A DNA stretch of 64,000 nt from Escherichia phage 4MG, in sequence record NC_022968.1; one strand, written 5' to 3'. This document shows, piece after piece, positions 214-57,243 of the stretch (within the stretch, counting starts at the first letter, position 1; each line of letters starts with the position of its first letter). A model generated the notes under the pieces. That model was not told the origin of the DNA. It saw nothing but the letters and a program-made list of their open reading frames with translations, and ran no database searches. The position numbers and the translations under genes are program-made.

Positions 214-861
214 TTAGATTGATCCCTCAATCTCTACTTCAGTCTTCGCGTTAGACTCGGACAACACAAAGTCAACGTTGGATTTGAAGTCTTCGATCTC
301 TGTTTCCAGAGCGCGAATTTTGTCTACCAGACCCAGCGGGTCAACGATAGAAGGAGTCCCCATGCTACGAACTGGACCTTCTACAACCGCCAACTGTGCA
401 GCGTCAGGCGCTTTATCACGTTGGATGTATCCGGCGCGAGCTGCTTCAAGCTTCGCTTCGAATTCCTGCGTATCGCGGTTCAGGCGAACCTGAGCGCTGT
501 TATACTGAGACTTCAACTTGCCAAGCAGAAGCTCTTTGAAAACGATAGTACGTTTACGCTCAATTGCCTGAGCAACAGTCATGGACTGGCCTGCGATCTC
601 AACGGTTGTTACCGCGTTAGACTGAACAACTTTCGCCTTCAGGTCGTCGCGAACAGCCAGAAGATCCTGAACACCCTGGAAGTCTGCCTGAGCAGCTTTC
701 TCGAATTCCTCAACGCTCTGGATAGAGCCTGGGATCTGACGGTTTGCGTCAGTGCCTTTCGCGATGTGGATCGTGTTCAGCGCTTCGATACGCTTCTGAA
801 TCTTTTCCTCAACCTTAGTCAGGGTAGCCAGAGCGCGGGTTACAGACATCTTAGTAGTCAT
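214..861 (-). CDS. hypothetical coiled-coil protein (215 aa)
   Basis: Track ORF; GAGGAGA SD upstream of ATG; Ala/Glu/Lys/Gln-rich heptad-like sequence, no catalytic motif seen. Confidence 0.5.
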   Translation of the reverse strand: MTTKMSVTRALATLTKVEEKIQKRIEALNTIHIAKGTDANRQIPGSIQSVEEFEKAAQADFQGVQDLLAVRDDLKAKVVQSNAVTTVEIAGQSMTVAQAIERKRTIVFKELLLGKLKSQYNSAQVRLNRDTQEFEAKLEAARAGYIQRDKAPDAAQLAVVEGPVRSMGTPSIVDPLGLVDKIRALETEIEDFKSNVDFVLSESNAKTEVEIEGSI

Positions 862-936
862 AGAATTCTCCTCTCATGAAATTTAAAATTTAAGTTACTT
901 CAAATATTTGCCGACATCCGTGTCGGCACAGCGGTA

Positions 937-1548
937 TTAGTTTTTGCCAGTGTTGACAACAACGCCTTGGCGGTTTGCATCAGCTTTCGCGATTTCCAGA
1001 CGGGTTTCGCGTTCTGCTTTCAGATCTTCACGGGCAGCTTCAAGCTGTTCGGTCAGCATTGCGATACGATCTTTGTCTGCCTTGGTATTGGCATTCAGTT
1101 CAGCAATTGCAACCTTGTGAGATGCTTCCAGATTCGCCTTAACAGCGTTCAGTTCAGCATATACTTTCTGTTTTGCATCTGCAACAGCGGTGTTGATTGC
1201 ATCTTCGTTGCTGTCCTTAGCAACAGCCAGTTCGTTACGCAGACCATCAACGACACCCGGTTCGATAGCGACGAGGCCACGAGCCTTCAGCAGTGCGTTC
1301 AGAACGCCGTCTTCATTTTCCAGAACCTTGATCTTCAGCTTAGACTTTTCTTCAGCGAATTTCTCATCAAACTGAGCTTCAATCTGACCAAGCTCTTGCT
1401 GTTTAAACTGAATTTCCTGACTGATGCGCTCAGAACCATCTGCCAGAGATTGCAGGTCAGCGACGACCTTACTCAGACCAGAGGCAGCGGTTGCAACAGC
1501 TTTGGTAGCACGTTCAGTTACAGAAATTACAGTTTTAGAATCAGACAT
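937..1548 (-). CDS. hypothetical coiled-coil protein (203 aa)
   Basis: Track ORF; AAGGAGA SD upstream; composition similar to neighbour 214-861. Confidence 0.5.
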   Translation of the reverse strand: MSDSKTVISVTERATKAVATAASGLSKVVADLQSLADGSERISQEIQFKQQELGQIEAQFDEKFAEEKSKLKIKVLENEDGVLNALLKARGLVAIEPGVVDGLRNELAVAKDSNEDAINTAVADAKQKVYAELNAVKANLEASHKVAIAELNANTKADKDRIAMLTEQLEAAREDLKAERETRLEIAKADANRQGVVVNTGKN

Positions 1549-9039: not shown

Positions 9040-9629
9040 TCGACCACGTTACATCAGACACGCATTGGTGGCACACCAATATTCTGGGTTTTCCCTCGTG
9101 TGATAAATTCCGGAAAAACCTGTACGGTCCAAAGGAAGTCCGTGAAAGTCTGTATGCCATGAATGCTGGCATGATTGAAATCTGGAATAAGCACGTCAAA
9201 CCAGATGATGTCGTAGCACACCTCGGTGATTTCGTGATTGCTTACGGACGCTACATGGAGCCTCGCGTTCGTGACATCTTGGAAAAGATCAACGGAAAGA
9301 TCATTCTGGTTGGTGGAAACCATGACAACCGAGATACGAAACGTATCTTCCGTGAGTTTGGTCACGAAGTTGTTGATTATAAAGAGATTAACTTCAGCAC
9401 TGGAAAAGAGAAGGTGCATGTGTGTATGTCTCACTATCCGTTTGCATCGTGGAATAAAGCTCACCACGGGTCAGTTATGCTGCACGGTCATAGCCACGGC
9501 TCCTATACAGCCCCTGGTGGACGTATTCTGGATGTGGGTTGGGATGTACATGGTCGTCCTCTGACGATGCGTGAAGCCGTCCTGATGTGCCTTGAAAAAC
9601 CAATTTACACTGCTGATCACGGAGAATAA
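9036..9629 (+). CDS. calcineurin-like metallophosphoesterase (candidate RNA/DNA-end phosphatase)
   Basis: Track ORF 197 aa; motifs HLGDFV, GGNHDNRD, HGHSHG typical of metallophosphatases. Confidence 0.7.
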   Translation: MIDHVTSDTHWWHTNILGFPSCDKFRKNLYGPKEVRESLYAMNAGMIEIWNKHVKPDDVVAHLGDFVIAYGRYMEPRVRDILEKINGKIILVGGNHDNRDTKRIFREFGHEVVDYKEINFSTGKEKVHVCMSHYPFASWNKAHHGSVMLHGHSHGSYTAPGGRILDVGWDVHGRPLTMREAVLMCLEKPIYTADHGE

Positions 9630-9630
9630 T

Positions 9631-9987
9631 ATGCACAACAAAGTACGTAATTTCTTACCTAAGAAAACATCTAAGTCTTTTTATGCTACGATACACATTG
9701 CTGGGGATCTGGAATCAGCAAGACCATTGCTCCGTCAATGGACTATGCGTGGTGCTTGTGTACAACTAGTCGGGTGTGATTACATCTACACTGGCGGCTC
9801 TGAACGGGGTATGACAGTTCGCATCATGCAGTATCCTCGTTTTGAACGACCGGAGCACGAGATCCTTGAAATGGCGGTTGAACTTGCTAACTTTTTAGCT
9901 CAGGAACTCTGCCAGATCAGTTTCAGCATTGAAACTCCTTACAATACAACGTATTACCAAGCAGAAGGTTACGAAAAGCGATCATGA
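9631..9987 (+). CDS. hypothetical protein (118 aa)
   Basis: ATG after GGAG SD; frame of track ORF. Confidence 0.4.
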   Translation: MHNKVRNFLPKKTSKSFYATIHIAGDLESARPLLRQWTMRGACVQLVGCDYIYTGGSERGMTVRIMQYPRFERPEHEILEMAVELANFLAQELCQISFSIETPYNTTYYQAEGYEKRS

Positions 9988-20286: not shown

Positions 20287-20914
20287 TTTCCCATATGTAC
20301 TGATGTCTGTTGACCAGTCGCTATCCCATTGTGCTGTTGTTATCTGGCGCGATGGGGTGCCAATCTACAGGGAGATGATCAGGACAGGGTCTACAAAGAG
20401 TAAAGGGAAGCAAAGCCCGGATGTCTACTACTTTGACACTGTTTATGAGCAGATAGAGCACATCTGTAAGCGCATAAATGAACTCTGTGAAGAGTATTCA
20501 CCCGATGACTATGTGATGGAAGCACTAAGTCTTGGATCGATTGGTAGCGCAACAAGGGACCTTGCTGGACTGTTTTATTGTATTGCTCTCAGTCTGGATG
20601 ATTGCGGTAATCATTTTATTGAATACTTCAATATCCACACTGTTGCACCAACTTCTGTTAAGTCTTTTGCCCGTAGTCTGCTCCCGGAAGATGAGCAATG
20701 GGAAGTTAAGGAAAAGCTTGACAAAAAGAAGAATAAAATGGTATCATCCAAGTCCAAAGTTAAGATGGACAAAGCCATGATGGTTAAGGCTGTCAATTAC
20801 GACTGCCCTGGCTGGTTGGATGGTGTTACTCTTGCAGCAGGAAAGGCTGACTATGCAGATGCATATTTGATTGGGAAAAAGTTCTTGGAGGACCTATCCG
20901 CAGGAAAAGAGTAA
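20276..20914 (+). CDS. hypothetical protein, possible RuvC-like resolvase fold
   Basis: Frame of track ORF; acidic residues in LMSVDQS, VMEALS, ADYADAYLIG resemble RNase H-like resolvase layout; weak. Confidence 0.4.
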   Translation: MMSDFPYVLMSVDQSLSHCAVVIWRDGVPIYREMIRTGSTKSKGKQSPDVYYFDTVYEQIEHICKRINELCEEYSPDDYVMEALSLGSIGSATRDLAGLFYCIALSLDDCGNHFIEYFNIHTVAPTSVKSFARSLLPEDEQWEVKEKLDKKKNKMVSSKSKVKMDKAMMVKAVNYDCPGWLDGVTLAAGKADYADAYLIGKKFLEDLSAGKE

Positions 20915-20955
20915 AGAGTCCTGCATCTAAACCCAAGGCAAGGAAGAAACCTGTC

Positions 20956-21444
20956 GTGGTGCCATTGACGGCAGAACTTTGGGTTAAGGATGCAAGACAG
21001 ATAGCAGCATTCAGGGAGAAGTTAATTCTGGAACAAGGCGGTCTTGATCCTGTACTTGGTGAGCCACTTCGCAAACCATGTCTCGATCATGATCACTTCG
21101 ACGGAAAGTGTCGAGGAGTCCTTAGCCAGTGTGTGAATACGTTTGAAGGATATGTCCTGAAGGCTTGGATGAAGTACGTTTCTGCTTACACAGAGACCTC
21201 GTTGTCCACAGCGCTTAGAAATCTTGCTGACTACTTGGAACAAGATTTCAGTGGGTATCCTATTCATGCTGGCTACAAGGACGACATGCTGAAGTTTTTG
21301 AGAAGATGTACCAATGAGAAGATCATTGAAAGGGCTGAGTCGGATCTCGGCCTCATCATTCCGAAAGGAACTCAGAAGCATGACAGCATCACACTTTACC
21401 TTACGGAGTTTGTCAGACAGACGGAGGAAAGATTTGCTGAATAA
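20956..21444 (+). CDS. endonuclease VII-like Holliday junction resolvase
   Basis: 162 aa; PCLDHDHFDGKCRGVLSQCVN matches the T4 endonuclease VII H-N-H/zinc core. Confidence 0.7.
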   Translation: MVPLTAELWVKDARQIAAFREKLILEQGGLDPVLGEPLRKPCLDHDHFDGKCRGVLSQCVNTFEGYVLKAWMKYVSAYTETSLSTALRNLADYLEQDFSGYPIHAGYKDDMLKFLRRCTNEKIIERAESDLGLIIPKGTQKHDSITLYLTEFVRQTEERFAE

Positions 21445-35965: not shown

Positions 35966-36351
35966 GCGAACTGAATGCTCGTGAAAAGCTGTTAGCCATT
36001 GCTGACTGGTTGGGTTGGCAGAATGAAGATCTATCTTTCGGCCTGAAGTCTCCTGAAGATGCAGTCAAGCTGTACAACTACTGGCAGGAACGTGCCGACA
36101 CCCTACCTGAAATGGCAGACGAGGTAGAGGACGACGAAGGTCGTTATGTGTTCATGTTCCGTAAACATGCCTTGGGCTATGACCCGCTTGGACAGGATGT
36201 TGAGATCCTTGCAAGCCTTGCACGGGACAAGTATGAAGAGAACAACGAAACACCGTGCTGTGATTTCAATGGACTCCGTAAACACGTTCGTACAATGTAC
36301 ATGAACGATGCCGAGTGGAAACTGCAAAAGGAGTATGGCCTTGTTCGATGA
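35962..36351 (+). CDS. hypothetical acidic protein (129 aa)
   Basis: Track ORF. Confidence 0.45.
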   Translation: MSELNAREKLLAIADWLGWQNEDLSFGLKSPEDAVKLYNYWQERADTLPEMADEVEDDEGRYVFMFRKHALGYDPLGQDVEILASLARDKYEENNETPCCDFNGLRKHVRTMYMNDAEWKLQKEYGLVR

Positions 36352-36493
36352 AAAATTTGAAGCGTGGTTCAATGAGAACTACCCTCATGTGACCGATCCA
36401 ATCACTCGTGCCATTGCTCACTGTGCGTGGGATGCCCGGTGGGAGCTTCTGGTTGAAGAATTCCGTGAAGTTCACGGGGAGAAACAAAAATGA
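36335..36493 (+). CDS. hypothetical small protein (52 aa)
   Basis: ATG after AAAAGGAG in frame of track ORF. Confidence 0.35.
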   Translation: MALFDEKFEAWFNENYPHVTDPITRAIAHCAWDARWELLVEEFREVHGEKQK

Positions 36494-36741
36494 ACGGGGT
36501 CTCCATCAAGTATCGAGCATACTGGGGTGGGACTCGAAAACAACCGCTCGCAGGGTTCTCTGTAGGCAACAAACCCTGGGTGACTGTTCGCGAGAACTAC
36601 GAAAAGCCTCTGCTTGTTCTCTGCACATGTGGGGCAAACGACTGGACCGATAACGGTCGCACAATGAATGAATACGAATGTGGCTGTTGTGGCGAATTCG
36701 TACTAACAGAACCTAAACAGGAGAAACACAATGACCAATAA
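36490..36741 (+). CDS. hypothetical Cys-rich protein (83 aa)
   Basis: Track ORF; CTCG ... CGCCGEF cysteine cluster. Confidence 0.4.
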   Translation: MNGVSIKYRAYWGGTRKQPLAGFSVGNKPWVTVRENYEKPLLVLCTCGANDWTDNGRTMNEYECGCCGEFVLTEPKQEKHNDQ

Positions 36742-43449: not shown

Positions 43450-43522
43450 TTCATCCTGTCTCCTATATAATATCTTGACTAACCATGATAAAATGGAGGT
43501 TAATAATATGATAGGAGGTAGT

Positions 43523-44011
43523 ATGTTTCAGAAATTAGTTCGTGAACACCCTACCCTACAAGAACACTGGCAGACCCTGCTGGAAAAGGGGTTCATAGAG
43601 AACTCTAAGGGTTGCATCGCGCTTGTACGCAAGTACGCCGCTGATGAAAGAGTGCTTATTATCAGGGATGCTAAAAACAGTATCCTTTATACCATTCGTG
43701 TAGGGCGATTGGAAGTTACTCGTGGCGTAGACACACAAAACCCGGTGACGTATACATTCCGTGTGGGTGATATGGGGAAGCTCGACCCAGAGCATCTGGA
43801 AGAGGCATTTGACCAATATGAGGGTTTTGAGACTTCCATCCGTGATCTCTATCGTACAATCGACAGGATCATTAACGAGTATAAGAAGTCTCTTGGATGG
43901 GGATACAGAATCAAAGATTGGTTCAGAAACCCGCCGAACAAGGTGTTCTTTGCTGTATTCGTTATCTATGCAATAATTAGCATGGTTGTGTATTTCTATC
44001 CACTTTTCTGA
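43523..44011 (+). CDS. hypothetical protein with C-terminal transmembrane anchor
   Basis: ATG after AGGAGG; hydrophobic C-terminus VFFAVFVIYAIISMVVYFYPLF. Confidence 0.45.
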   Translation: MFQKLVREHPTLQEHWQTLLEKGFIENSKGCIALVRKYAADERVLIIRDAKNSILYTIRVGRLEVTRGVDTQNPVTYTFRVGDMGKLDPEHLEEAFDQYEGFETSIRDLYRTIDRIINEYKKSLGWGYRIKDWFRNPPNKVFFAVFVIYAIISMVVYFYPLF

Positions 44012-44016
44012 GGAGA

Positions 44017-44418
44017 TTGTCTATGAGGGACAGAGGAGATTATTACCGTAAGTACGCCGAGCGGAGGCGAATGATAGACCGTGAGCGTCGTTCTACGCCA
44101 GAAGGAAAGGCAAGGCAGTTACAGATCAGGCTTGAGCGTATCGAGGCTGAGAAACGTGCAACCATGCACAGTGAGTGGGACATCTTTGTAAGAGAAGAGG
44201 CCAACCATCTTTGCAACGTGAGGATGTGTGAAACTGGCATCCGTTGGGAGCCAGACCACATGCTGCCCCTCCGGGCAAAGATTGTCTCCGGCCTTAACTG
44301 TGGTGATAATATCCAGGTAATCCCTGCAAAGATGAATCGTAGCAAAAAGAACCACATGATTTATACCAACCGCTTTGAGTGGATTAAGGATTTGGAGACC
44401 GTATGCAGGATGAAATGA
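44017..44418 (+). CDS. HNH endonuclease
   Basis: 133 aa; HLCNVRMCE ... EPDHMLP ... NCGDNIQVIPAKMNRSKKNH HNH-type motifs. Confidence 0.6.
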   Translation: MSMRDRGDYYRKYAERRRMIDRERRSTPEGKARQLQIRLERIEAEKRATMHSEWDIFVREEANHLCNVRMCETGIRWEPDHMLPLRAKIVSGLNCGDNIQVIPAKMNRSKKNHMIYTNRFEWIKDLETVCRMK

Positions 44419-53378: not shown

Positions 53379-53666
53379 ATGGCTTTCCACAAGGTTGTAA
53401 AAGCGCCTGCGAAACGGGCGCATATAAAGAATTACCCACACAAGAAGTCTGAAGCGAGAGACCGAAGAGTGAAGTGGTTATGGGACTATACAAAATCACT
53501 TCTTGGGGTTATCCTCGTAAACAGCGGCTATCATAAGTTTCACTTCTACGAACAATGGAGTGCTGTGAAAAAAGAGCTTAAAGAACTCGATGCTTACGAT
53601 GAGCGAAACACCTGGCTCATTATCTCAGATGTTAAGTGGGAGCACAACAGATTTTATCGGTGGTGA
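53379..53666 (+). CDS. hypothetical basic protein (95 aa)
   Basis: Track ORF; AAGGAGAACAC SD; last gene of rightward block. Confidence 0.45.
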   Translation: MAFHKVVKAPAKRAHIKNYPHKKSEARDRRVKWLWDYTKSLLGVILVNSGYHKFHFYEQWSAVKKELKELDAYDERNTWLIISDVKWEHNRFYRW

Positions 53667-53708: not shown

Positions 53709-54433
53709 CATTATACGCCACATCTCCTGAAGCGGGAGGATACAATCACCAGACCTGCGTGAAAGGTTGTACACCCTGTTAACATTCTGTCATGTCGATA
53801 AAACACCATTTCATAAACATATACCCCACAACATGTCGATGCTATAAACATGTCTGAAGTGACCCAGCAAATTAGCCGGGGACTAATCGCCTTGCGATAT
53901 ACCCACCCCTCCCCCGCCCGGAGGGAAACGTAAACAGGCCCCTCTCTTTGTGTTTTCTGGCACGAAAATATCCTGAAGAGGCAGGGCCTCGAAGACAGGT
54001 GTTTCTGGGCGCAATCTCTATGTCTGATGTGTTAGACGGACAATCACAGCCCCTCCGGGTTGTCAAGGATCTTTACAAAATATCTGAGAGGTCTGACCAC
54101 GAGACCCTATCGAGTTTTTGGCACGATGATTGCATGATGATTACGTGGCGCAACTAATGATTACAAGTGCAACTATTAGCAATGTGACAGTTTACACCTG
54201 TTACAGCACGATTTGCTCTTGACTTGCTTATATTTGTGTGAATGAGCCTATTTAACATAATACACGTTATGCGAACCACAGATCACCGGGAGACAGGCCA
54301 TATAGTCACATATGTTATCATTGCATCAGTGAACCATACCACAAGGCAACCAATAGCCTGCTACATGTTACCACCACGACAGTTTCACGCTGTTATTATT
54401 CATTTTGTGGGGTGTTTTGTCGATGAGAATACA

Positions 54434-54446
54434 AATGATAATCATT
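54434..54446. promoter_or_regulatory. Fur-box-like palindromic 13-mer AATGATAATCATT
   Basis: Identical to the central 13 nt of the E. coli Fur consensus GATAATGATAATCATTATC; second identical copy at 54584-54596. Confidence 0.4.
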
Positions 54447-54583
54447 CTGAATACGATTTCGATTTCAGTTTCGAAATGAAAACCATTCTCAAATGGAAAA
54501 TATTTTGTAAATCTGCCATAAAAAGCTTGACACAGAGGGAAAAATGTGTTTAGCATTTAAGCCTATCTTGAGCATCCAACCGC

Positions 54584-54596
54584 AATGATAATCATT
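54584..54596. promoter_or_regulatory. Fur-box-like palindromic 13-mer AATGATAATCATT (second copy)
   Basis: Exact repeat of 54434-54446, 150 bp away. Confidence 0.4.
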
Positions 54597-54782
54597 AACG
54601 TTAAGCCTTGCTACGCCTGGCTTTAATAGACTTTTCCTATCAATAAAAAGCTTGACAGTTTACACCTTTTCATGCTCAAGAAAACCGCTTTTCATCGGGC
54701 ATCTAGCCCGGTTTACAACATGATTAATCATGATTTGTCAATCATTAAACATGATTAAACCGCTTTTGATCTTCATAACCTG

Positions 54783-54802
54783 GCGACACAATAACACGAG
54801 GG
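54783..54802. repeat. left arm of perfect 20-bp inverted repeat GCGACACAATAACACGAGGG
   Basis: Exact reverse complement of 54976-54995; arms 173 bp apart with nested 11-bp inverted repeat. Confidence 0.7.
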
Positions 54803-54975
54803 CGATCATGCGATAGCGTGATCGGTGTTATCGTGGCGAGGTTATAAAATACTTCAACTATGCAATAGTTGCATTATGAATTATTCATTGTTCTAGTCAT
54901 CTTGTCTGTTAACGCTTAGGCGCTAACGAGCCACGATAACGCGAACGAAAACGATATTTATTATCGTTTGAGTTA

Positions 54976-54995
54976 CCCTCGTGTTATTGTGTCGC
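54976..54995. repeat. right arm of perfect 20-bp inverted repeat CCCTCGTGTTATTGTGTCGC
   Basis: Exact reverse complement of 54783-54802. Confidence 0.7.
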
Positions 54996-55131
54996 TCGCT
55001 CCGCTCGCGCCACTCACCCCGATAACGCGAACGATATTTTTATTTGACAAAAGATGATTACTATGCTCAAAAAAGACAGTTCACACAAAGGGTTAGATGA
55101 GAAAAGTTATCATTTCAGGGCTTTTGCTTCG

Positions 55132-55327
55132 TATTCACTCAATTTGCATAAAAACACGGTGTTTATTCACTTGATAACCTGCGTTATCATTTTTGGGGTG
55201 TGAGTGAGTCAAAGGCGGGTAATGATACACGATTAAACGCAATATAACGCGTTTTGAGAGGGTTTATCTGTTAGGCTTGCCGTTGTATGGCTTCAAAGAG
55301 ATCTCTTTAAATTCACTTTTTTGCATA
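55132..55327 (-). promoter_or_regulatory. regulatory cassette C: two conserved boxes (ATTCACT-N-TTGCATA type) about 179 bp apart, with AAAGAGATCTCTTT palindrome
   Basis: Boxes at about 55132-55150 and 55311-55327; paralogous to cassettes at 56538-56732 and 61218-61414. Confidence 0.5.
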
Positions 55328-55376
55328 AAGACGGGTAAAGATTTAGTGTTTTGTTTGGGGTGTTGGTATGATATGC

Positions 55377-55400
55377 AAAAAGCCGGGGATTATCCCGGCC
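55377..55400 (-). terminator. intrinsic terminator of leftward block (GCCGGGGA-UUA-UCCCGGC + UUUUU on minus strand)
   Basis: Hairpin and U-run immediately downstream of last minus gene (stop at 55420). Confidence 0.6.
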
Positions 55401-55419
55401 TTACTTGGTGTGACTTTGA

Positions 55420-55635
55420 TCAGATAAACATTGCAGCATAATGATCGTAAAGGTCTTGCGCTTGTCTGGCAGGCCAGCGGCTTTCATCCACCGGGACACG
55501 TAGATCAATCGGGCGGCGATCTTTCAATCCGTTAACATGAAAAAATGTTTCACCTGTAAGCTGTACGATCTCCAGTTTAACGAGGTTGTCAGAATCTTTT
55601 ACGGTCTGCTGAATGAGAATAGTAGTCATTTGCAA
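55420..55635 (-). CDS. hypothetical protein (71 aa)
   Basis: Track ORF; coupled to upstream gene. Confidence 0.45.
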   Translation of the reverse strand: MQMTTILIQQTVKDSDNLVKLEIVQLTGETFFHVNGLKDRRPIDLRVPVDESRWPARQAQDLYDHYAAMFI

Positions 55636-56001
55636 TTACTCCACAATTGTGATGGTTTGACCTGGTAACAGGAAATTCCCGGTTTTATCGTCAAAAATTC
55701 CGGTTGCACTTGTTACGGTGACCGTTTCGCCTGATGTCACGATCATAACTTGGGATTCAGTTGGATAATCAAAGGTGTAAAGGCGAGGTGTTAACGGCTT
55801 GCCGCTTTCTTTCGAATAGTTAACATCATAATCATAAACGGCTTGACATTTGATCGCTACCGTTTCGGCCTTGTAATAGTGGTTATCATAGCCATAGCCA
55901 CGCATAAACGGCGCGGATATTTCCAGGACTTCACACAGCGAACCACGAAACAACATATCGCCTTTTTTCAGGTCTAAAAGGTTGATTTTCTTAAGATCCA
56001 T
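55636..56001 (-). CDS. hypothetical protein (121 aa)
   Basis: Track ORF; GAGAGG SD after stem-loop. Confidence 0.45.
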   Translation of the reverse strand: MDLKKINLLDLKKGDMLFRGSLCEVLEISAPFMRGYGYDNHYYKAETVAIKCQAVYDYDVNYSKESGKPLTPRLYTFDYPTESQVMIVTSGETVTVTSATGIFDDKTGNFLLPGQTITIVE

Positions 56002-56024
56002 TTTGTTTACCTCTCAAAGTGTAA

Positions 56025-56043
56025 CGGGGCGACTAGCGCCCCC
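56025..56043 (-). repeat. intergenic GC-rich stem-loop (CGGGGCG-ACUAG-CGCCCCG)
   Basis: Lies between stop of 56052-56429 and SD of 55636-56001. Confidence 0.5.
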
Positions 56044-56051
56044 GATGATTA

Positions 56052-56429
56052 TTACTGATAAGCGGGATCGTTGGTGATGTCGATCCAATGAGTTAAATCA
56101 ATTTTGCCTTTTTCTTTCATTTTCTCGATCAGGCGGTCGGCTAATGTCTCAGAACGAACATAAACATTCTCGCTAAAATCCTGGCCTGTTTCATCGTCGA
56201 TCATTTCGCAATATTCGATTTTACCGATGAAAGCATGATTCAAGGCGTAAGTTTTACCAGTAAACCAGTTGTGTAAATGAATCTCGCATTTATAATCATC
56301 GCTACGGCCTTCAGTAGTCATAACGTCGATCAGATCACCTTTGAAAACTGAAAGATTCCACATGAGATCTTTAGTTTTACCGCCAAAATCTTTAGTTTCT
56401 ACGGTTGAAGCCAGGTTAATGATCGACAT
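56052..56429 (-). CDS. hypothetical protein (125 aa)
   Basis: Track ORF; AAGAGG SD; first gene after cassette D. Confidence 0.45.
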   Translation of the reverse strand: MSIINLASTVETKDFGGKTKDLMWNLSVFKGDLIDVMTTEGRSDDYKCEIHLHNWFTGKTYALNHAFIGKIEYCEMIDDETGQDFSENVYVRSETLADRLIEKMKEKGKIDLTHWIDITNDPAYQ

Positions 56430-56485
56430 TTGATTTACCTCTTAGTCTGTTTTGTTTGATTTCGTTTGTTTGCCCTACGAGATAA

Positions 56486-56514
56486 ATATTACTATAGGGG
56501 GATCAGCACGTCAA
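56486..56514 (-). promoter_or_regulatory. sigma70-like promoter on minus strand, TTGACG-N17-TAATAT
   Basis: Read on reverse complement; about 50 nt upstream of ATG at 56429 and about 25 nt downstream of conserved box. Confidence 0.5.
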
Positions 56515-56537
56515 TAGCTCTTTACATAACTTTACAC

Positions 56538-56732
56538 TATTCACTGTTTGCATCTTTATGCATCGCTATGCAATTCATTTCATGGTGAAATTACTTTTTA
56601 GGCGTTTTTCCGTGTCAAGCTATTTTTATATAGCCTTTAAACGTCCTGTAACGCGTTTTAAGCGGTTTTGCGTCCAGGCTGTACCCTAGCCCGTTTTAAC
56701 GGAGATCTCCCCATATTCACTATTTTGCATAG
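56538..56732 (-). promoter_or_regulatory. regulatory cassette D: two conserved boxes about 175 bp apart, with GGAGATCTCC palindrome and Fur-box-like motifs nearby
   Basis: Boxes at about 56538-56553 and 56713-56732; internal segment shares AACGCGTTTTAAGCGG-like motif with cassettes C and E. Confidence 0.5.
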
Positions 56733-56884
56733 GATTTGAGGGTGTAGTGATAATCATTCTCATCGCCCAGCGATTAGCCCCCGGCTAACTATCTAAATGA
56801 TAGTGATTCTCATTACCGGAATAACAGGCACCTCCGGTGGCTTTCCTCCGGTGTCCATCGTTGCCGCTTCCACAAAAGAATAAC

Positions 56885-56912
56885 AAAAACCGGGACAGAA
56901 AACAAGCCCCGG
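56885..56912 (-). terminator. candidate intrinsic terminator on minus strand (CCGGGG...CCCGG hairpin + UUUUU)
   Basis: Immediately downstream of stop of 56926-57243; loop is long (about 13 nt), so weaker call. Confidence 0.35.
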
Positions 56913-56925
56913 AATTGTAAAGATT

Positions 56926-57243
56926 TTAGCGGATATTTATCCCGGCGGGTAGCCAGTAGCCAGAATAATGATCATGAGGTGTGAACCCGTGGGACGGCTT
57001 TATATATGTAACTGATAACCATTCTCGATCATCCAGATAAAGCGCCTCATCTATTGCCACCACAAAACACAATTCACCTTCACGATCTTTAACGGTTGCG
57101 ATAGCGTGTTTTTCTATCGCCTTTTCAAGTGCAGCCAGGCCGCGCCGGAATTGTTCCGGGCGTGTGCGGTAACCTAAGTTATCCTCAGGGCAAAGTCTGT
57201 TTAAGGTAGCCCAGCTAACCGCAATCATTTTTTGAAGTGTCAT
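56926..57243 (-). CDS. hypothetical protein (105 aa)
   Basis: Internal ATG of track ORF with AAGAGG SD; abuts stop of upstream gene. Confidence 0.4.
   Translation of the reverse strand: MTLQKMIAVSWATLNRLCPEDNLGYRTRPEQFRRGLAALEKAIEKHAIATVKDREGELCFVVAIDEALYLDDREWLSVTYIKPSHGFTPHDHYSGYWLPAGINIR

Follow-up and report, generated by a model that had tools for sequence, protein, structure and literature searches.

In a 64,000-nucleotide stretch of the genome of Escherichia phage 4MG (NC_022968.1; in the following, the window) we find an array of palindromic boxes between positions 54436 and 57027, which resemble the operators of the iron-sensing host regulator Fur and of which all but one are located in non-coding DNA. 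This resemblance holds up and goes far beyond what chance would produce, and we favour the view that the palindromes are genuine Fur-type operators by sequence, at which binding of Fur is predicted. Several of them are placed in or next to a predicted terminal repeat, and this location is likely to change the biology in comparison to an earlier sequence-only reading of the same DNA, which proposed that the phage couples early transcription to the iron status of the host via Fur, titrates Fur or uses a dimeric regulator of its own. Our best single guess for the function, which we hold at about even confidence, is that the boxes are occupied by iron-loaded Fur of the host, and that non-coding transcription from the genome end would be limited in this way.

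The 13-mer AATGATAATCATT had been described as occurring twice exactly and as being identical to the core of the Fur consensus of E. coli. Both statements are correct: the two copies are found at 54434-54446 and 54584-54596 (chance expectation of exact copies approximately 0.002), and the 13-mer corresponds to positions 4-16 of the consensus GATAATGATAATCATTATC. When up to two mismatches are allowed there are 14 matches, versus 2.84 in shuffled sequences (largest number 7). The unit is longer than this, as repeat finding revealed a AAATGATAATCATTCTCA-like element in five copies, and comparison with related phages showed that the true unit is a 15-bp palindrome, in which two half-sites of 7 bp are separated by one base (7-1-7; TGAkAAy-N-rTTmTCA), with A-rich and T-rich flanks. 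It is present in eight copies in 54436-57027 of the window and in 5-10 copies in each relative, some of them perfect (TGAGAATAATTCTCA). The eight boxes agree with the 19-bp consensus GATAATGATAATCATTATC (as a 7-1-7 inverted repeat, TGATAATnATTATCA) at 12-16 of 19 positions and with the degenerate core at 12-14 of 14. Further strings named in the sequence-only reading were located at 56747 (GTGATAATCATT), 56796 (AATGATAGTGATTCTCATT) and 54720 (ATGATTAATCAT). Thus, four of the five proposed sites (54434, 54584, about 56748 and about 56793) stand as Fur-box-like, with the 15-bp palindrome instead of the 13-mer as the real unit. The fifth, ATGATTAATCAT at 54720-54731, had to be given up as a Fur box, since this palindrome has a 6-0-6 and not a 7-1-7 geometry and the best score in 54700-54780 is -0.6 bits with the matrix described below. 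The boxes at 54477, 54952, 55098 and 57013 (the last one within a coding sequence) were not on the earlier list.

For scoring, twelve canonical Fur-regulated promoter regions were taken from the E. coli K-12 genome, as the study of Chen et al. (PMC2189734) does not give the site sequences as text. Ten of these regions contributed the 13 sites of the resulting matrix, which holds no phage sequence. The matrix gives seven matches of at least 13 bits, in comparison to 0.058 in local shuffles (maximum 1), and the enrichment over shuffled sequence proposed as a check for the motif is therefore present. Similarly, 2,118 bp of non-coding DNA contain five sites matching the degenerate core at 13 or more of 14 positions, versus 0.008 in 500 local dinucleotide shuffles. 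At 14 or more of 19 positions, the consensus GATAATGATAATCATTATC is matched 16 times in the window versus 1.9 times in shuffles, and 12 of these 16 matches fall in 54.4-57.0 kb. The clustering is even sharper with the matrix: nine matches of at least 13 bits are located in the 3.25 kb from 53800 to 57050 and none in the remaining 60.7 kb, and the ten highest scores of the window are all within 54430-57013. In the complete genome (148 kb) of Cronobacter phage GAP31 the strong core matches, seven in number, are confined to 20.9-32.8 kb.

One could argue that AT-rich, promoter-dense non-coding DNA merely looks like the AT-rich Fur consensus, the more so as the G+C content is about 0.40 in the non-coding gap (about 0.40-0.42 in the region) versus 0.46, and as Fur half-sites resemble -10 hexamers. 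The local dinucleotide shuffles (0.008-0.06 expected versus 5-7 observed) speak against such an artefact of composition, as do the absence of matrix matches in the T7 genome and in 50-100 kb of T5 (G+C content 0.39) and the retention of the motif at orthologous positions described below. Moreover, consensus sites for DnaA, LexA, IHF, CRP and Fnr, among them other AT-rich motifs, are absent from the region, which shows that the enrichment is specific for the Fur type. With these controls the artefact is effectively refuted and its probability is negligible. The lack of the other boxes also rules out that the region is a general collection of host-factor sites, as is found in the injection stop signal of T5.

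The phage belongs to the Vequintavirinae myoviruses, and its closest relative is GAP31 (Seunavirus), with 91.5% identity over 68% of the query. Conservation was scored at orthologous positions in an alignment of nine related phages, in which 13 bits are reached by only 0.5% of the control positions. The positions of the boxes are kept while their sequences drift. Box 1 (TGATAATCATTCTGA, 54436-54450, 22.5 bits, 14 of 19 consensus positions) is the box of the first 13-mer copy and lies within the predicted terminal repeat. It scores at least 14 bits in all nine phages, and a second site of 11.8 bits is located 6 bp upstream at 54430. Box 2 (TGAAAACCATTCTCA, 54477-54491, 21.2 bits), also within the predicted repeat, is strong in four of the nine phages and has approximately 8-9 bits in the rest. 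Box 3 (TGATAATCATTAACG, 54586-54600, 19.2 bits, 15 of 19), which holds the second 13-mer copy, is found 36 nt inward of the inner boundary of the repeat, and in eight of nine phages its orthologue has at least 13 bits despite differing sequences (e.g. TGCGAATAGTTATCA and TGATAACAATTCTCG). Box 4 (CGATATTTATTATCG, 54952-54966, 20.5 bits) is enclosed by a long inverted repeat that is deeply conserved; the box has at least 20 bits in eight of nine phages, with orthologues such as TGATAAGTATTATCA reaching 24-25 bits. Box 5 (TGAGAAAAGTTATCA, 55098-55112, 15.4 bits) follows the same TTGACA element in EC152, LNA4, EspYZU14, SPLA5a, FENT2, PVP-SE1 and Seu621. In the more distant gap at 56.7 kb, box 6 (TGATAATCATTCTCA, 56748-56762, 17.5 bits, 15 of 19 and 14 of 14 in the degenerate core), assigned to a cassette D in the sequence-only reading, lies within an insertion of approximately 50 nt specific to the window phage, the relatives having only one box in that gap. 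Box 7 (TGATAGTGATTCTCA, 56798-56812, 23.9 bits, 16 of 19) is the best one of the window and is followed by a conserved GGCACCTCCGGTG segment. The weaker match TGATAACCATTCTCG (57013-57027, 14.4 bits) is inside the coding sequence 56926-57243 on the minus strand, in the codons for ...DDREWLSVTY..., and although it is kept in GAP31, its function is doubtful. No alignment of the DNA is possible with phage rV5, but its corresponding gap contains a set of three sites (13-19.7 bits).

The scores of the window boxes (14.4-23.9 bits) correspond to those of the E. coli sites in a leave-one-out analysis (11.4-23.9 bits), the twelve E. coli promoter regions agreeing with the consensus at 12-17 of 19 positions. 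About half of the phage half-sites read TGAGAA and not TGATAA. The same non-consensus features, including a TGAGAAT half-site and the flanks, are present in actual operators of E. coli, namely those of ryhB, exbB, fhuA and fecI. The ryhB operator AATAATCATTCTCATTCGC is most similar to the GAP31 site GATAATCATTCTCATTTGC and has the exact 14-mer ATGAGAATGATTAT in common with the minus strand of the window at 56767-56743 (box 6). The closest phage site to the exbB operator TGATAGTCGTTCTCAtta is TGATAGTGATTCTCAtta at 56798 of the window (box 7), the fhuA operator TAATAATCATTCTCGttt is matched best by TGATAACAATTCTCGttt of the relatives, and the fecI operator TGAGAATGGTTATCA by the reverse complement of the window site at 57013. 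Furthermore, real Fur sites are reported to cluster as overlapping sites with an offset of exactly 6 bp (PMC2189734). Of 39 phage boxes, 21-23% have a further site of 8 bits or more at plus or minus 6 bp, versus 4-7% of flank-shuffled controls. At plus or minus 12 bp the values are 5% and 0.2%, and no other offset is enriched. Such phased extensions are thus confined to a minority of the boxes. Taken together, the phage boxes are like the E. coli operators (ryhB, exbB, fhuA, fecI, fhuF, fiu, ent/fep) in the 7-1-7 or 19-bp architecture, the TGAGAAT half-site, the A/T flanks, the range of scores and the 6-bp phasing, and the claimed resemblance holds with a matrix made from E. coli sites only. 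They differ from these operators in their setting: 83% of the Fur clusters in E. coli overlap sigma-70 promoters (PMC2189734), whereas the phage boxes are not placed over sigma-70 -35 and -10 elements, belong to terminal non-coding DNA of a virulent phage and have no iron gene nearby.

This setting is a non-coding gap of approximately 1.7 kb between convergent gene blocks, together with the intergenic gap 56430-56926 in the leftward block. The rightward genes stop at 53666, and the small leftward genes form a block from 55420 to the end of the window. Equivalent gaps exist in PVP-SE1 (approximately 2.2 kb), in the Klebsiella Mydovirus Seu621 (approximately 2 kb) and in rV5 (2.6 kb), where the gap corresponds to the 'non-coding' box of the rV5 paper. 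Homology to the Mydovirus phages DP and KPP-1 predicts a direct terminal repeat, i.e. the physical genome end, at 54035-54550. Klebsiella phage DP was deposited with identical 514-bp direct repeats at both ends, and for KPP-1 a 514-bp repeat was deduced from twofold read coverage and PhageTerm, with packaging of the T7 type (PMC9862379). Alignment offsets and boundary sequences map both repeats to the window, the outer boundary being GACGGACA at 54035 and the inner one GTGTT|TAGCA at 54550/54551. According to the mapped boundaries, the boxes at 54436 and 54477 are within the repeat, that at 54586 is 36 nt beyond it, and those at 54952 and 55098 follow within less than 600 bp. The inner boundary is thus flanked by boxes at -59 and +36 nt; there is none near the outer boundary at 54035, and other boxes are 2-12 kb away. 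Each of the boundaries is preceded by a similar GTGTT(A) string (...GTGTTA|GACGG and ...GTGTT|TAGCA), which is possibly the context of cleavage.

A parallel exists in the unrelated phage T5 (NC_005859). Its strongest matrix matches (18.9, 28.0, 22.6 and 13.8 bits) cluster at 9554-9713, within the annotated non-coding injection stop signal (iss) at the inner end of the 10.2-kb terminal repeat, where four matches compare with 0.04 in shuffles. The iss contains five tandem copies of TTTTTAAATGAGAATCATT. The shear point of first-step transfer was placed at approximately 9618, in the 'DRD2' repeat, by Davison (bioRxiv 10.1101/866236), who proposed DnaA boxes and did not mention Fur. We also noticed a perfect LexA-type SOS box (TACTGTATAAATATACAGTA) at 9408-9427 of T5, in the iss beside the DnaA-type boxes; 'LexA' is absent from Davison's text. 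Like the box region of the window, the iss (repeat region 3 with the DRD repeats) is a long conserved non-coding DNA in the inner part of a terminal repeat with a cluster of the Fur type. Unlike the box region, it has DnaA and LexA boxes, and the T5 repeat is 10.2 kb long and carries genes. The two phages have no homologous sequence or proteins in common in these regions.

What the boxes could do is suggested by the layout of the gap. The alignment of the nine phages revealed a conserved series of plus-strand modules, in which a TTGACA-type hexamer preceded by an A/T tract is followed by a stretch of variable sequence, then in most units by a box, and by hairpins with compensatory changes. The outermost one begins with the inward-facing -35-like ACGACA at 54376-54381 (GTGACA in relatives), 60 nt upstream of box 1, in the block tGACAGTTTACACCTGTTATTATTCA conserved in the nine phages. 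It is followed by TTGACA-N18-TAGCAT with an upstream A-tract at 54527-54556 (10 of 12 in a consensus scan), 59 nt upstream of box 3. In this element TTGACA and GTGTTTAGCA are conserved in all nine phages, and the inner boundary of the terminal repeat falls between its two hexamers. A further promoter-like TTGACA with an upstream A-tract (54652-54657) is followed by a hairpin with compensatory changes and has no Fur-type box downstream. The fourth, with an upstream T/A-tract (55044-55049, conserved in the nine phages), is located 54 nt upstream of box 5. Thus, in three of the four units the distance from the start of the hexamer to the box is 60, 59 or 54 nt. Promoter activity and direction of these plus-strand elements are inferred. 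After two of them there are short hairpins at 54603-54622 and 54692-54712, the stems of which are kept by compensatory changes across phages (e.g. GGGC...GCCC versus GGCC...GGCC), which suggests short transcription units or protein-binding structures. A simple terminator scan detected nothing in the region, the hairpins reported here having been read from sequence and alignment. With its terminal repeat and several inward-facing, host-type promoter-like elements behind it, the arrangement is reminiscent of the left end of T7 with the promoters A1-A3. However, Fur-type sites are absent from T7, and the T7 promoters are followed by the genes that they serve, whereas those in the window face convergently transcribed genes.

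Based on these observations, we suggest the following scenario. In an infected enterobacterial cell the dimer of host Fur with Fe2+, rather than a phage protein, would occupy the 7-1-7 boxes in the predicted 514-bp repeat, in the 600 bp or so that adjoin it on the inner side, and in the small-gene block, where one or two portable intergenic modules carry them. The three boxes located 54-60 nt past the -35 hexamers would correspond to about +19 to +40 of the predicted transcripts. With sufficient iron, bound Fur-Fe2+ would block or limit short non-coding transcription that enters from the genome end, and this transcription would be set free when iron is scarce. We propose a roadblock mode because of the recurrent layout of promoter-like element, spacing of approximately 55-60 nt and box; occupancy, promoter activity and the roadblock effect are all predictions. 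With approximately 8-10 strong sites per genome copy, replication would additionally soak up Fur.

Several observations weigh against this scenario. Most of them concern the promoters: the -10 hexamers of the promoter-like elements are weak or uncertain, the element which straddles the repeat boundary could alternatively be a packaging signal, and at one unit the distance between -35 and box varies among relatives through indels. A -35 hexamer (at least 4 of 6 positions) at 16-18 bp from a half-site is found for only 7 of 45 boxes, in comparison to 26% of random control positions, and we therefore rejected the classic repressor layout, in which the half-site coincides with the -10 region of a sigma-70 promoter. 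Fur sites between promoter and gene lead to little repression in E. coli (PMC2189734). In T5, the boxes are not obviously associated with promoters either, which suggests a role outside transcription. As for the motif, the matrix sites were chosen by their match to the consensus in known Fur-regulated promoters and the matrix is therefore partly circular, and G is present at position 4 of about half of the phage half-sites, versus 4 of 26 in the E. coli set. Finally, the literature on these phages holds no transcriptome, transcription start site map or Fur study.

The question of which protein reads the boxes can be approached by comparing the two phage lineages. A tblastn search with E. coli Fur yielded no match in any Vequintavirinae record, and against the window, GAP31 and T5 the E value was never below 3.6, so that no Fur homologue is encoded by these phages. 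In the comparison, which covered T5 up to 100 kb, none of the T5 pre-early, annotated regulatory or DNA-binding proteins has a homologue in GAP31, and what is common to T5 and the window lineage is limited to NrdB, an endolysin, tRNAs and a protein of PHROG 1491; a common DNA-binding protein was not found. The PHROG 1491 protein (approximately 215 aa, 38% identity between T5 and the window lineage) is the only shared non-enzyme protein. It has no Pfam domain and no DNA-binding signature, its label 'tail fiber' looks doubtful, and it is encoded among tRNA genes in both phages (GAP31_190 at 36071-36718, by offset approximately window 500-1150 on the minus strand, and T5.085 at 43505-44143). Host Fur is the simplest common factor because the two lineages share hosts and the motif but no detectable reader protein, and we favour it as the reader of the boxes. 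The dimeric regulator of the phage's own that had been considered, for example a repressor shutting off early transcription or an end-binding protein, whose sites would be Fur-like by convergence or incidentally, is disfavoured by the lack of a Fur homologue and by the occurrence of the motif in the unrelated T5. Such a protein could be among the more than 100 small proteins of unknown function encoded by the phage, and it would fit the positions of the boxes away from those typical for Fur at promoters, the higher frequency of TGAGAA half-sites than in E. coli and the confinement of the boxes to the small-gene block and the terminal region. On the other hand, the sites are degenerate as for a global regulator, their flanks and the 6-bp phasing match real Fur operators, and sites of this strength should in any case be occupied by Fur in a cell that contains it. 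We therefore regard a phage protein as a rather unlikely reader.

Other explanations differ in the purpose of the boxes. Instead of regulating genes, they could act in cis in a DNA transaction at the genome end (entry or pausing, synapsis or circularisation, duplication of the repeat or packaging), with either Fur, in an architectural role, or phage machinery as their reader. Five of the eight boxes are in the predicted repeat or less than 600 bp inside it and flank its inner boundary, the strongest boxes of T5 (up to 28 bits) surround the shear point, the boxes do not overlap promoters, and the region harbours a deeply conserved long inverted repeat. This has to be set against the boxes 2.2 kb (56748 and 56798) and, in GAP31, 11.8 kb away from the repeat, which belong to intergenic modules in either orientation, and against the lack of a box near the outer boundary; in addition, the repeat position is based on homology to another genus of the subfamily. 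Palindromic sites are also unusual for recognition by the small terminase. As a whole we judge this explanation unlikely, although an architectural or gating role at the end is favoured by where the boxes lie relative to the terminal repeat and by the parallel in T5. A broader version, to which we give a low probability, is that host-Fur site arrays are a convergent feature at the inner terminal repeats of unrelated virulent phages (Vequintavirinae and T5-like), with Fur, already present in the cell, as an iron-sensing architectural or gating factor and not as a repressor of genes, for example in the pausing or licensing of DNA entry (as at the T5 injection stop signal) or in synapsis or processing of the repeats. 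The titration mentioned in the sequence-only reading would make the array a sponge: replicating genomes, in hundreds of copies with approximately 8-10 strong sites each, would titrate Fur and derepress iron uptake of the host for the iron-dependent ribonucleotide reductase of the phage. A cell contains some thousands of Fur molecules, and derepression of Fur-controlled genes by multicopy Fur boxes is the principle of the Fur titration assay. The nine sites of at least 13 bits per GAP31 genome (two more if the terminal repeat is counted twice) make titration feasible, and GAP31 encodes class Ia ribonucleotide reductase subunits. However, a sponge does not need fixed positions and leaves unexplained why the boxes are kept orthologously beside the same elements, and T5 degrades the host DNA early, so that derepression of host genes could not be the purpose there. 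We consider a sponge improbable as the main function, and return to the limitation of genome-end transcription by host Fur as our preferred reading.

Regulation of the phage genes by the boxes, as implied in the proposed coupling of early transcription to iron, has no support in the gap 56430-56926. Read on the minus strand, it starts with an intrinsic-terminator-like hairpin with T-run (CCGGGGCTTGTTTTCTGTCCCGGTTTTT, 56885-56912), which ends the upstream leftward gene, and continues with box 7, box 6, a repeated cassette, two promoters and a gene. Both promoters for the leftward genes are sigma-70-like, TTGACA-17-AGTAAT at 56618-56590 and TTGACG-17-TAATAT at 56514-56486, the latter directly upstream of the gene, and neither has a Fur-type box; the count of -35 hexamers given above points in the same direction. 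The product of the gene (56052-56429, minus strand), to which the 56.7-kb boxes are upstream, is homologous to T4 gp30.8 (PF06019, E = 2e-29) and belongs to a family of unknown function. No iron-related genes were found near the boxes, the neighbours encoding this gp30.8-family protein and others of unknown function, and there are no tRNAs in the box region. A structured small RNA like ryhB after a box was also considered and gained no clear support. The segment after box 7 is conserved, but its folding z-scores are -0.24 and -0.53. There are few covarying pairs, and most of them are in or beside the terminator hairpin at 56885-56912, as is the single clean one, which changes from AU to GC and has no broken pairs, and Rfam gave no match in the region beyond a chance miRNA.

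The comparison with the relatives also sheds light on the turnover of the boxes. In the window phage a perfect box (TGAGAATAATTCTCA) was lost when DNA near 55330 was deleted, it seems between short direct repeats, and box 56748 was gained with the insertion of approximately 50 nt (56748-56797), the rest of which is an inverted copy of 53872-53898 (85% complementary). These two events show, as judged from the aligned sequences, that boxes are turned over by indels. Box 7 together with the downstream GGCACCyCCGGTG segment (window 56798-56840) is a portable module recurring in relatives. At 20.9 kb of GAP31 (20908-20958) it contains two boxes of 20.2 and 25.9 bits and is inverted relative to the surrounding genes, and an additional copy was noticed in PVP-SE1 on the opposite strand, at about 2650 of its record. 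The long inverted repeat around box 4 (54783-54995) has arms of 20 nt at 54783-54802 and 54976-54995, which are 100% complementary, in addition to inner arms and CACGATAACGCGAACGA direct repeats. No other part of the non-coding region is as well conserved, and Erwinia phages align only to this segment. A cruciform, an origin and a structured RNA are conceivable roles for it. Apart from this, a cassette of approximately 100 nt is present in two copies, 1404 nt apart (55233-55327 and 56637-56731). Two small palindromes, GAGATCTC and AACGCGTT, are part of it, as is the block ATTCACTnTTTTGCATA; in relatives this block is directly adjacent to a Fur-type box.

Sites of host regulators on phage DNA are not without precedent. 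Virulent cyanophages carry sites of host nutrient regulators (Pho boxes and NtcA sites), thus also of a regulator of nutrient status, but theirs precede metabolic genes of the phage, whereas here no regulated gene is evident. In lambdoid phages a Fur box is present at the stx1 promoter. In temperate members a Fur box was described upstream of the sitABCD operon (PMC6969025), and host Fur sites on phage DNA are thus common to both cases. The lambdoid phages have a single box over the promoter of a prophage cargo gene, while the window contains an array of boxes in terminal non-coding DNA of a virulent phage with no cargo gene. In the literature we found Fur boxes only for these temperate lambdoid phages (sit operons, PMC6969025) and none for rV5-like or T5-like virulent phages, and no report of a conserved Fur-box array in terminal non-coding DNA of a virulent phage, away from promoters. 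Fur boxes on bacterial chromosomes and at few prophage cargo genes were known already; the setting and the layout are new.

The Fur-type boxes may be important for several reasons. At the genome end of T5, the presence of the motif around the shear point makes the question of what stops T5 DNA transfer directly testable, and if gating at genome ends were true, the progress of infection would depend on the iron status of the host. Further, if host Fur binds to the boxes, an entire subfamily of therapeutic and biocontrol phages with broad host range (rV5, PVP-SE1 and the Klebsiella Mydovirus) would sense the iron status of their hosts. These phages are intended for use in the gut and in infected tissue, both of which are limited in iron.

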